Below are positions 3,396-6,554 of a stretch of DNA of 64,000 nucleotides, one piece after another. The stretch comes from Escherichia coli. GTDB lineage: Bacteria > Pseudomonadota > Gammaproteobacteria > Enterobacterales > Enterobacteriaceae. Each line of letters opens with the position of its first letter. Position 1 is the stretch's first letter. The DNA lies in NCBI RefSeq assembly GCF_048403405.1, contig NZ_CP183129.1. One strand, 5' to 3'. The translations under genes were made by a program, and so were the position numbers. The notes under the pieces were generated by a model. That model worked only from the letters and a program-made list of their open reading frames with translations. It was not told the origin of the DNA and did no database searches.

Positions 3396-4253
3396 CTATG
3401 AACGCTTCAGCTTATCAATAGCGGAAGTTATAATTTCATTGTCATCAAACTTGTACAACATAGTATCTAAAACAGGAAGTAGCGTTTTATCACCTAATTC
3501 ACCCGCAGCTTCAATGATATCATCATAAACAGTATTTTTTTTTAACTCATCGCATAAAACAGATAAAATCCTTTTATCTTTTCTGTAGGAAAGTCCGATT
3601 ATTGCTTCAATACGGACTTCCTCATTTTTATCCTGAAGCATCTCCACAAAACAATCCCTAATATCACTATTATCATATTTATTGATATTTATTGCAAATG
3701 CGGCCCAGTTTCTGACATCTCCATTTGGATCTTTTAACAGATTAATCAATAGTGGAATTGTTGCTTTATCATTGATAACAGAAATAGCAAATGCTGTAGC
3801 ACGTCTGACATTAGTCGATTTATCAAAAGCAGTAATTTGAGATTGTTCTACTATTTTAGGTGAATAAATTGGGTTTTTCTTGCATCGCTGAGCCGTTGAC
3901 TCGATTGCCGTAGCTCGAACGCAAGCGCTCTTATCATTCAATGCCATATTGTTCAAAATATTAAACACATTATCTTTGCATTTTTTGCAAATTTTTATTT
4001 GCCCGAGTATAAATGCTCCGATATCTCTACGGATATAATTTTTATCAGAGCAGAACTCAATTGCCAATCTAACAGCGTCTTGACCACCTCTTAACTGTAA
4101 TACTCTGGCAGATGAAATCCTTTTCAAGGAATTGTGATCATCAAGTAAGCGAAATAATTCATCATCATTTAGTTTCTTACATTGATTATATAAACCATAC
4201 TCTTTACTTGCCTTTCTTTTCTGGTATGTATTTGACATTGCAGGAACCTCCAT
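3396..4253 (-). CDS. HEAT/ARM-like repeat protein, putative orphan immunity protein
   Basis: 285-aa AT-rich ORF with repeated helical motifs (e.g. LLKDPNGDVRNWAAFAI, LQDKNEEVRIEAIIGL) typical of HEAT-like repeats; located in the Rhs orphan array. Confidence 0.55.
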   Translation of the reverse strand: MEVPAMSNTYQKRKASKEYGLYNQCKKLNDDELFRLLDDHNSLKRISSARVLQLRGGQDAVRLAIEFCSDKNYIRRDIGAFILGQIKICKKCKDNVFNILNNMALNDKSACVRATAIESTAQRCKKNPIYSPKIVEQSQITAFDKSTNVRRATAFAISVINDKATIPLLINLLKDPNGDVRNWAAFAININKYDNSDIRDCFVEMLQDKNEEVRIEAIIGLSYRKDKRILSVLCDELKKNTVYDDIIEAAGELGDKTLLPVLDTMLYKFDDNEIITSAIDKLKRS

Positions 4254-4342
4254 AAAGACTATCTTTTTCTATCGTTTGACTGTCTGGAGTCCTCCACCTA
4301 CTCTGCCATCAGCACACACGATGTTTGTTTATCCTTACATAC

Positions 4343-4543
4343 TTATTTTCCGTGGCCAAAATTTAGAATTCTCCCGTCATTTTTGCCTATTTCTATAATA
4401 AAAACCCTACCAGCAATTTGGTCTGATTCAATGGTGCCTTCAACAATCCAACTTGTTGGTAATTCCATGATTTTGTATGGTTTTTCTTCTTCTGCGGCAT
4501 CATGCCCATAACGATTTTTAACATACATCTCAGCTAATTCCAA
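4343..4543 (-). CDS. Small hypothetical protein, paralogous to N-terminally truncated 6207..6554 product; putative orphan immunity fragment
   Basis: 66-aa ORF; shares a pattern (...KPY.I...W.IEG......G..F.I.I.K.DG..L...H) with the 115-aa ORF at 6207..6554. Confidence 0.4.
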   Translation of the reverse strand: MELAEMYVKNRYGHDAAEEEKPYKIMELPTSWIVEGTIESDQIAGRVFIIEIGKNDGRILNFGHGK

Positions 4544-4689
4544 TGCTATAGCTTTATTTTTACCAAATTTCTAACGGTGTATTTCCCCTCACATTCATAC
4601 TTGCGCATTATAATAATATTATTACACTGCGCCCATGTGTTGTATGTAAAAACAAAGATACAATCACATAGGTTCTGAATAATATTTTC

Positions 4690-5067
4690 TTATACGTTGT
4701 AATGTATTTTGCAAACATTAGACAATCCTTTTCCATTTATTATATCTTTCCCATGATTATCTATTGCTTTAAAATTTTCACCTATTGACCTTGAATTACT
4801 ACAATCACTTCCAGTGAAATCTGAGTTATTCAGAATAGCATTCATCAGAGCCGCATTGTGAAAGACAGCATTTCTAGTTGATGTATGTTGAATCATTACA
4901 TTTCTTAAATGAGTTTTTTCAAATTTCGCCCCATCAAGACAATAACCATTGAGGGTGGCACGATGTAGATTCATCCCGCTAAAATCATATCCAGCAAGAG
5001 TGGTACTATCTATCTCAAGAAATTTATTGGTTATTAAAAATGCGATTCTTATCATCTGTTCCTCCAA
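4690..5067 (-). CDS. Pentapeptide-repeat protein, putative orphan immunity protein
   Basis: 125-aa ORF with tandem pentapeptide-like units (DFSGMNLHRATLNGYCLDGAKFEKTHLRNVMIQHTSTRNAVFHNAALMNAILNNSDFTGSDCSNS). Confidence 0.55.
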   Translation of the reverse strand: MEEQMIRIAFLITNKFLEIDSTTLAGYDFSGMNLHRATLNGYCLDGAKFEKTHLRNVMIQHTSTRNAVFHNAALMNAILNNSDFTGSDCSNSRSIGENFKAIDNHGKDIINGKGLSNVCKIHYNV

Positions 5068-5303
5068 TCATCTAACTCCTGAAAAATTTGAAAACCAGAA
5101 CCTCGCTTAGGCCTGTGTCCATACTACGTGGGTAGGATTATTCTGCGTACTACGCTGTTGTCCCTTACGTGCTGATAAGGGCTGGCAGGTTTCCGGCTTG
5201 CTTCGTTGAGTTCACTACGCTAAAGCTCCGTGTCCACATAACCCAGCTCGGAGGCATGACCTTCTCTGGTTCGTTCCATCTAAAATGTCTATAACTGACA
5301 TGG

Positions 5304-5624
5304 TTATTCAATTATTTTTTCTTTGAGTTTATTCTCAATCCAGCGGTCTTTATACCTGATGAGAATTTGACATTCACCAATATTATCAATGTCACCAACA
5401 TTTGTGTTTCGAATTTGACCAACAGCAACTATAGTTGATTCAAAACATTCAACATTGACTTTATCTGTTATTATTGAAACTATATAATCATCTGGAATGG
5501 AGCCATTAGGTATTATATTAAAGAAAGTAACATCGGTAAATACTAAATAACCATTTTCTAAGTCTTCATTATTATAAAAATTCCATTCTGTTGTACCATA
5601 GGCTATCCTTGAGATTAAATTCAC
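5304..5624 (-). CDS. Hypothetical protein in Rhs orphan array
   Basis: 106-aa AT-rich ORF downstream of a degenerate Rhs core remnant; no recognisable motif. Confidence 0.4.
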   Translation of the reverse strand: MNLISRIAYGTTEWNFYNNEDLENGYLVFTDVTFFNIIPNGSIPDDYIVSIITDKVNVECFESTIVAVGQIRNTNVGDIDNIGECQILIRYKDRWIENKLKEKIIE

Positions 5625-5833
5625 CTGAATTCTAATTTGTTTGCTCCATAAATCAAATTCAATTTTTTTATTGGTCGATCACCAAGATATATTCTATCAA
5701 ACATATTACCCTCTATTCTAAAAATACTCAGGCATTCCACACATTATATCAGCCTCATCTTGACTGCTTCCCGTTTCCCGATACGGCGGTGCGGGGAGTC
5801 ATAAAGGTAAGAAATTTCCAGCAGTACGGCGTC

Positions 5834-5920
5834 CTATTGTTCACGGCGGTAATGCACCAGCCAGTATTGGCTATCGTAGTGATAACCGTGTAATCTGCCG
5901 CCGCATCGCGTATCTAATGT
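5834..5920 (-). pseudogene. Short Rhs core remnant (about 28 codons between stops)
   Basis: Minus-strand translation ...GRLHGYHYDSQYWLVHYRREQ* resembles main Rhs segment [18 protein letters not shown]; nucleotide similarity to 8540-8600. Confidence 0.4.
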
Positions 5921-6206
5921 TCATTCTTTTCCATAAACCGTCCGTACACATTGTGATAGTAAAAATACAATACATCTTCGCTGATGCGGTTATTCTGCTG
6001 CATGTGGGAAGCGCCGAATACTGCTCCCGGTATGGCCAGTAATTACTATTTAGTACGACGTTAGGGGGAGTCACTTAATCTCACAGATACTTCAAGTAAC
6101 AGATGAAAATCGCTCCTGAAATGAAAAAGAAATTTTTTTGAATGTGTTCCTGTCAAATCAAGTGGTTTTTTCGTCGATATGTAGAGTCATATTGTACACA
6201 AAATAG

Positions 6207-6554
6207 TTATGAAACACACCTTGGTAAAATATTTGAATCGTCTGAACAGTGGATTATTTTGTGTATTACATCCAACGCTTGCCCATCTTTTTTCGCTATT
6301 AGTATTGTAAAATTTCCTCCTAACGTCTTCGGTTGTTTTCCCTCGATTTTCCAACAATTATTGTCATCTGTAATACTATATGGTTTCTGAAATTCTGCTT
6401 TTTCTTTCCCGTATATATATTTAATATAAACATATGATAATTCCAAAGCCATTTCACGACTATTTACTAAAATTTCCACTGAATTTTCTTTTCCAAATAC
6501 TGAGTGTGATATTGTAAACAATATCATAATAAGTAATATTAGTGAGTTTCTCAT
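6207..6554 (-). CDS. Secreted small protein, putative orphan immunity protein
   Basis: 115-aa ORF with N-terminal signal-like segment MRNSLILLIMILFTISHSVFG; preceded by a short toxin-tail-like remnant (6555-6700) ending in ATGA overlap. Confidence 0.5.
   Translation of the reverse strand: MRNSLILLIMILFTISHSVFGKENSVEILVNSREMALELSYVYIKYIYGKEKAEFQKPYSITDDNNCWKIEGKQPKTLGGNFTILIAKKDGQALDVIHKIIHCSDDSNILPRCVS

Follow-up and report, generated by a model that had tools for sequence, protein, structure and literature searches.

What are the small, AT-rich open reading frames (ORFs) that lie downstream of the main Rhs gene at the Escherichia coli rhsB locus, and does any of them still provide immunity to a toxin? 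The stretch analyzed here (the window) comprises 64,000 nucleotides of E. coli contig NZ_CP183129.1 (RefSeq assembly GCF_048403405.1) and includes the rhsB locus, from nikR to yhhJ, where the minus strand carries the Rhs gene, then the small AT-rich ORFs, and, at the end, a fragment of ISAs1 (H-repeat). An earlier reading, made from the DNA letters and here called the sequence-only reading, had taken five of these ORFs, between positions 3396 and 6554, for a bank of immunity genes retained after their toxins were lost. All five are present at the coordinates given by that reading, on the minus strand and in AT-rich DNA (G+C of 0.30 to 0.41 over 3400-7200, compared to 0.60 to 0.67 for the Rhs core), and the array indeed holds no intact cognate toxin, only the 3' stubs of four toxins. 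We consider it likely, with good confidence, that the region is an eroded fossil stack, the product of C-terminal displacement that took place repeatedly at the Rhs locus, in which some members may act as orphan immunity genes. In minus-strand order, the array consists of the following features:

6564-6701, minus strand: stub with the last 45 codons and the stop of a Tox-JAB-2/DUF4329 Rhs tip (91% nucleotide identity to the 3' end of the Rhs gene at locus L019)
6207-6554, minus strand: Imm-NTF2-2 immunity gene, 115 amino acids, with start codon and signal-like N terminus intact (Pfam PF15631)
5771-6003, minus strand: decayed, AT-rich relic of Rhs-core sequence that contains a stop codon and changes frame (tblastn, main Rhs residues 923-1004, 39 to 57% identity)
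5720-5775, minus strand: stub with about the last 18 codons of the DUF6258-cognate Rhs toxin tip (homology to the Rhs 3' end of E. coli 13E0780)
5304-5704, minus strand: frameshifted DUF6258 gene (Pfam PF19772; alignment to 13E0780)
5139-5182, minus strand: short Rhs-core scrap, end of the block shared with the BL21/O157 rhsC-locus arrays (blastn to loci L004, L005, and L006)
5077-5146, strand not set: scrap of an IS3 insertion sequence (IS) end, 62 to 70 bp, covering the end of the transposase gene and the IS terminus (blastn-type matches to IS3, 86 to 95% identity)
4777-5067, minus strand: 5' part of a stand-alone pentapeptide-repeat gene (Pfam PF13599, E = 1e-7; alignment of relatives)
4690-4776, minus strand: stub with the last 28 codons and the stop of an RhsB-type Tox-JAB-2/DUF4329 toxin (alignment to K-12 RhsB)
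4343-4718, minus strand: yhhH-like Imm-NTF2-2 pseudogene (alignment to K-12 rhsB-yhhH; annotated as frameshifted by NCBI's Prokaryotic Genome Annotation Pipeline [PGAP])
4259-4290, minus strand: stub with the last 10 codons and the stop of an RhsA-type Ntox34 toxin (32 bp; aligned with K-12 rhsA-yibA)
3396-4238, minus strand: yibA, an intact Imm-HEAT immunity gene of 280 amino acids (NF007244; PDB 1OYZ)

These features resolve into four modules: (1) a Tox-JAB-2 stub followed by the Imm-NTF2-2 gene 6207-6554; (2) an Rhs-core relic and the stub of an unnamed toxin followed by the DUF6258 gene; (3) the RhsB-type Tox-JAB-2 stub followed by the yhhH remnant; and (4) the Ntox34 stub followed by yibA. 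BL21 and O157 carry modules 1 and 2 as a block at their rhsC locus, and other strains have modules 3 and 4 as a block at rhsA or rhsB loci. Between these blocks lies a 362-bp filler (4777-5138), the sole part of the array that belongs to neither; it consists of the scrap of an IS3 end and the 5' part of a truncated, unrelated pentapeptide gene. The idea of immunity genes kept after toxin loss is supported in four cases, in each of which the ORF lies behind the stub of a toxin that is intact beside the same gene elsewhere (Ntox34 with YibA, the RhsB-type DUF4329 toxin with YhhH, a second DUF4329 toxin with 6207-6554, and an unnamed Rhs tip with DUF6258), but it does not hold for the pentapeptide ORF, and only yibA and 6207-6554 are whole. 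According to the mechanism that we propose, each new cassette of toxin tip and immunity gene would recombine onto the conserved Rhs core and push the earlier tip with its immunity gene downstream; later deletions and one IS3-associated rearrangement would then have stripped away the greater part of the duplicated Rhs core and almost everything that coded for toxin, so that each immunity gene would be left with 32 to 138 bp of the 3' end of its toxin.

The HEAT-like protein of the sequence-only reading (3396-4253) is YibA. It scores 463.4 bits on NCBIfam model NF007244 (cut-off 275), aligns from residues 1 to 280 onto residues 1 to 280 of PDB 1OYZ (E = 2.9e-182), and has all but 2 of its 280 residues in common with K-12 YibA. 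Its start has to be moved to the ATG at 4238, which has a GGAGG upstream and yields the 280 amino acids of 1OYZ; the ATG at 4253 is the product of a G-to-A change relative to K-12. The homology to K-12 rhsA-yibA extends as far as 4290 and thereby covers the 20-nucleotide spacer and the final 10 RhsA codons. In K-12 the rhsA-yibA pair includes an intact toxin, whose tip is Pfam Ntox34 (PF15606, E = 1.4e-43), and the polymorphic-toxin catalogue of Zhang et al. (2012, PMC3482391) pairs Ntox34 with Imm-HEAT; the window differs from this known system in that yibA has no toxin coupled to it and occupies the rhsB instead of the rhsA locus. Across 5426 complete E. coli genomes, to which all population counts refer, yibA is found at a coverage of at least 80% in 2946, with 99% identity among them, and the Ntox34 tip in 1755, which means that many genomes keep yibA intact in the absence of its toxin: about 1200 genomes bear yibA and no Ntox34 tip, that is, they keep the antidote to a toxin carried by a third of the species. 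This strain, too, probably retains protection against the RhsA-type Ntox34 toxin of those 1755 genomes.

Module 3 matches K-12 as well, with 92% identity between 3892-4776 and the K-12 segment that runs from the 3' end of rhsB through yhhH into yibA. Its toxin stub reads ENFKAIDNHGKDIINGKGLSNVCKIHYNV followed by the stop, compared to GNFKAIDNHGKEITNRKGLPNVCRVHGNM and the stop in K-12 RhsB, the tip of which is DUF4329 (Tox-JAB-2; E = 4.6e-40), a family paired with Imm-NTF2-2 in the same catalogue (PMC3482391). With respect to K-12 yhhH, the 5' third of the yhhH-like gene has suffered deletions of 4, 3, and 1 bp, which ruin both the frame and the signal-peptide region (hydrophobic leader); the 66-amino-acid ORF 4343-4543 is the tail of this pseudogene (its last 66 codons) and offers no intact frame from the family start through the Imm-NTF2-2/YhhH domain. 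How such a module might come to lie in front of yibA is illustrated by the rhsA locus of strain RM10809-3, where the order is rhs (with an RhsB tip), yhhH, yibA, orphan tip, and yibG, and which is a direct example of a new tip and immunity pair that displaces the Ntox34 tip and orphans yibA. The strain studied here has no intact yhhH at its rhsB locus (a statement about this locus only), and the RhsB-type DUF4329 tip occurs in about 2550 genomes; at this locus, immunity to that toxin would have gone with the intact YhhH.

The two small proteins that the sequence-only reading called related, 4343-4543 and 6207-6554, are so: the first is a YhhH variant, and the 115-amino-acid product of the second is 41% identical to K-12 YhhH over 76 amino acids. 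The latter matches Pfam Imm-NTF2-2 (PF15631) over residues 35 to 99 (E = 1.1e-17), and it lies directly after a Tox-JAB-2/DUF4329 toxin remnant, which ends 10 nucleotides upstream of the gene and reads INYSKKYVLNGYPGTPEGRFGKMDSDGKNIIYSECNVLPTTFEIR before the stop, compared to ...INYSKKHVLNGYLGTPEGRFGKMDFDGKNIIYSECNVLPTTFEIR and the stop at locus L019. An intact relative of 100 amino acids (P0159, 85% identity) likewise begins 10 nucleotides downstream of an Rhs gene whose tip is DUF4329, and intact pairs are present at loci L019 and L020. The whole block 5139-7400 is 95% identical to the ybfC-NTF2-DUF6258 block that BL21 and O157 carry at rhsC. Compared to the 100-amino-acid intact form, a 2-bp deletion in an ACAC run turns the end ...THTK into ...HKIIHCSDDSNILPRCVS (each followed by the stop) and so swaps the last 4 residues and adds a 17-amino-acid tail. 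Both small proteins share with the YhhH/YbbC (Imm-NTF2-2)-Tox-JAB-2 system their family and their place after a DUF4329 stub, but one copy is frameshifted and without its signal-peptide region and the other has an altered C-terminal tail. The 115-amino-acid protein is possibly a functional immunity protein. The orphan immunity gene of this type occurs in about 800 complete genomes, often with independent lesions, and its cognate DUF4329 toxin (L019, 1-2271) was found only in draft or metagenome contigs.

The remaining immunity-like ORF, 5304-5624, belongs to a gene that has lost its frame. It matches Pfam DUF6258 (PF19772) with E = 1.9e-15 but only over model positions 33 to 103 of 136, short of the full length of about 133 amino acids; it starts at a GTG peculiar to the version in the window and holds the C-terminal 106 of 133 codons, with the first 27 cut off. 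The ancestral ATG is at 5704, and the frame is broken by the loss of 1 nucleotide in an A8 run (about 5660-5672), where the window, BL21, and O157 have A7 and strain 13E0780 has A8. The window matches 13E0780 over 5139-5775, and the rhsA locus of that strain carries a 133-amino-acid DUF6258 gene 15 nucleotides after a full-length Rhs gene; the cognate stub reads TGSSQDEADIMCGMPEYF before the stop in the window and STGSNQDEADIMCGMPEYF before the stop in 13E0780. Full-length DUF6258 genes also lie 16 nucleotides after Rhs genes in Salmonella and Citrobacter, so that several taxa have the gene immediately behind a full-length toxin gene, and a relative with 50% identity is surrounded by Imm15, Barstar-like, and ankyrin genes. 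Because of this position 15 to 16 nucleotides after full-length Rhs genes elsewhere, synteny suggests that DUF6258 is very probably an Rhs immunity family, to which Pfam assigns no function and for which our literature search found no paper mentioning the name. Its cognate Rhs tip of about 175 amino acids, present in 13E0780 (L004, 6417-6950) and in Salmonella (L025, 741-4985), is an unclassified toxin domain for which neither Pfam nor NCBIfam gave a match. The intact DUF6258 toxin/immunity pair occurs in 57 genomes, and 844 retain some remnant of it.

An array of this kind downstream of a full-length rhs gene, accompanied by IS and H-repeat debris and with immunity genes that are in principle still expressible, closely resembles the orphan Rhs/CdiA modules described by Poole et al. 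(2011, PMC3150448), such as rhsA-yibA-yibJ-yibG and rhsB-yhhH of K-12; the idea that orphan modules supply immunity is described there too. Their orphan modules retain the tip from the DPxGL motif onward, whereas here only 10 to 45 codons of the toxin 3' ends are left. A tblastn search with the main Rhs protein found no DPxGL-bearing segment within 3396-6722, where Rhs sequence is limited to the relic 5771-6003 and the 3' stubs of the toxins, so no immunity gene of the array is preceded by DPxGL and a tip; the neighboring module does have this arrangement, in a DPxGL-bearing segment at 2896-3369 with 90% identity to the main Rhs. The phenomenon, the families (Imm-HEAT and Imm-NTF2-2), and the genes (yibA and yhhH-like) are all known and annotated in hundreds of genomes, and the sole difference from textbook orphan modules is the heavier erosion, with tips reduced to stubs. 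What is mildly new is only the proposal that DUF6258 forms an Rhs immunity family.

The filler between the two blocks bears on a further claim of the sequence-only reading, namely, that all five ORFs are functional orphan immunity genes and that one of them, 4690-5067, encodes a Qnr/McbG-like pentapeptide DNA mimic against a lost toxin that targeted gyrase or another topoisomerase. In favor of this claim, the five ORFs all lie open on a single strand, and the pentapeptide repeats are real (Pfam Pentapeptide_4, PF13599, E = 1e-7, with the PF00805 repeat found too) and retain an ATG of their own at 5055 with a GGAGG 6 nucleotides upstream. The gene, however, is not intact: the ORF of 121 amino acids is an in-frame fusion of two unrelated coding fragments, both of which PGAP annotates as partial pseudogenes, joined at a shared "NF" (AATTTT) microhomology. 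Its first part corresponds to the 93 to 96 N-terminal residues of a protein of about 160 amino acids, of which some 70 C-terminal codons are gone, and what follows residue 96 or so is the tail of the RhsB-type toxin. Instead of a complete beta-helix of about 180 to 220 amino acids, the ORF thus encodes about 93 repeat residues and then 29 unrelated toxin-tail residues. Two further ORFs of the five are frameshift remnants.

The relatives of the pentapeptide fragment give the same picture. A word-indexed search recovered near-identical E. coli ORFs only, and an exhaustive HMMER search was needed to pick out the 160-amino-acid relatives among thousands of generic pentapeptide matches. Three relatives, P0018 (161 amino acids, 56% identity), P0102 (108 amino acids, 50%), and P0069 (160 amino acids, 44%), align from residue 1 to about residue 90. 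In the three contexts examined, these closest relatives stand alone beside fdhD/azlCD/rha genes or pabB/yoaH, with no toxin genes as neighbors and hence not in the position directly downstream of a toxin gene that an immunity protein would be expected to hold. Loci L007 to L016 show this stand-alone family of about 160 amino acids at conserved sites (pabB/yoaH or fdhD/azlCD) within an enterobacterial-like gene order. The word "pentapeptide" does not occur in most of the text of the immunity catalogue (PMC3482391). With Qnr, MfpA, and McbG (183 to 218 amino acids) the ORF has only the generic right-handed pentapeptide beta-helix in common, and its scores are far below the cut-offs (Qnr, 17.9 bits against 240; QnrB, 16.8 against 460; MfpA, 19.5 against 360), as is that of the full-length relative P0018 on the Qnr model (36.7 bits against 240). 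A chimera whose relatives lie outside toxin loci permits no inference about a topoisomerase-targeting toxin, and that part of the claim is left unsupported, as is the role of gyrase protector. In many near-identical E. coli relatives, moreover, the ORF is interrupted at its ribosome-binding site: a complete IS2 is inserted at 5061-5065, and its target duplication, CCTCC, is the Shine-Dalgarno sequence of the chimera; the window is free of this insertion. The sequence-only reading had named, as grounds for giving up its claim, ORFs without homologues in toxin loci or shown to be noncoding remnants, a description that fits the pentapeptide ORF, for which the claim is refuted; the other four have toxin-linked homologues. 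Taken as a whole, a bank of five working genes is already largely refuted, and we regard it as highly improbable.

We conclude that the pentapeptide ORF is, in all appearance, a by-product of rearrangement, and the IS3 scrap at 5077-5146 looks like the scar of that event. We also considered that the pentapeptide gene might itself be the immunity gene of a module deprived of its toxin by an IS3-linked deletion, which would fit the anatomy of the filler, but the contexts of the three relatives give it no support. The case calls for caution in two respects: an ORF with a recognizable repeat family can be a fusion artifact, and the target of a toxin cannot safely be inferred from a lone "immunity-like" ORF.

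If the array is a stack of displaced modules, the question becomes whether any of its genes still works. We propose that just two are likely to do so, namely, YibA and the protein encoded by 6207-6554, as orphan immunity proteins that would bind and neutralize incoming Ntox34 and Tox-JAB-2 Rhs toxins from other E. coli strains, and that the yhhH-like and DUF6258 genes would be decaying. The alternative is that the whole array is functionless debris, in which all five ORFs, yibA and 6207-6554 included, hitchhike beside an active rhs gene without conferring protection. Several observations point in this direction or qualify the case for a continuing immunity function: (i) three of the five ORFs are demonstrably broken; (ii) the homologues of 6207-6554 bear independent lesions in other lineages, the BL21 copy having no ATG and the O157 copy having a nonsense codon, and the copy in the window has its altered C-terminal tail; (iii) a megablast search of the complete genomes gave no match to the cognate DUF4329 toxin of 6207-6554, and blastn returned only the RhsB paralogue (about 66% identity, 2550 genomes), so that selection on this gene may be relaxed; (iv) yibA is truncated by ISEc1 at the K-12 rhsB locus, and its uniformity among genomes might stem from recent spread by recombination instead of selection; (v) promoter-like sites are not enriched in 3300-7400 (19, compared to 16.5 ± 4.2 expected); and (vi) the pairwise ratios of nonsynonymous to synonymous substitution rates (dN/dS) of the NTF2, DUF6258, and yhhH remnant pieces, 0.26 to 0.39, rest on few substitutions and mostly reflect divergence before the lesions. 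We had considered dN/dS as a means of separating live genes from recent pseudogenes, for which these values are uninformative.

Against mere debris stand the intact state and 99% identity of yibA in its 2946 genomes, including the roughly 1200 without an Ntox34 tip, and the prevalence of the Ntox34 toxin, which makes it a common threat. The deletions, furthermore, removed the toxins yet spared the start region of every immunity gene, and an orphan CdiI of E. coli EC93 is both expressed and protective (PMC3150448). The scan of 3300-7400 detected no terminator-like site, which is compatible with read-through from rhs. On balance, we judge it unlikely that the array is debris throughout and prefer the fossil stack with one or two orphan immunity genes that may be functional.

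Two further proposals, modest and tentative, can be made: (a) that DUF6258 is a bona fide Rhs immunity family with the tip of about 175 amino acids as its cognate toxin, and (b) that expression signals of the immunity genes within the toxin 3' ends have been under selection. Taken together, these proposals seem to us less likely than not. If (a) is true, the A7 run in the DUF6258 gene of this strain could permit a low-level rescue by transcriptional slippage; if (b) is true, the 32 to 138 bp of toxin 3' ends would have been retained by selection and would not be chance endpoints of deletions. Promoters within the retained stubs were looked for as one form of such signals and rejected, as no promoter-like site falls in any stub and there is no overall enrichment. 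Beyond these points, the region is a clear and fully resolvable example of how Rhs loci gain and erode toxin/immunity cassettes, with little import other than its correct annotation.

The array is not peculiar to this isolate. Strains 4621 and MS 69-1 carry a stretch identical to 3300-6800, and at least 80% of that stretch is present in 272 genomes. On the identical stretch, the RefSeq/PGAP annotation lists yibA, an NTF2 fold immunity protein (frameshifted), two partial pentapeptide pseudogene pieces, a DUF6258 family protein, an NTF2 fold immunity protein, a hypothetical protein, and an RHS core protein. The surroundings of the array in the window are as follows:

11691-12092, minus strand: nikR, boundary of the locus
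7289-11488, minus strand: main Rhs gene, 1399 amino acids (ORF list)
6723-7292, minus strand: YbfC-type RhsI of the main Rhs gene, 189 amino acids, with a hydrophobic, signal-like N terminus (ORF; upstream boundary of the array)
1896-2375: intact Sel1-repeat protein, yibG-like, after the orphan Rhs tip (2389-3366)
1132-1566: truncated ISAs1 H-repeat, preceded by an IS630 scrap and downstream of the Sel1-repeat gene
22-978, plus strand: yhhJ, boundary of the locus

The tip of the main Rhs and its 189-amino-acid partner (6723-7792) are of the YbfO/YbfC type, as at the K-12 rhsC locus; neither has a family match in NCBIfam, and the homologue of the partner gene is annotated as ybfC in BL21 and O157. 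On the other side of the array, the next module downstream (1896-3366) begins with the orphan Rhs tip, which has kept its DPxGL boundary and contains an internal stop. Finally, hydrophobic, signal-like starts are shared by YbfC and both Imm-NTF2-2 proteins, which hints that the corresponding toxins act outside the cytoplasm.

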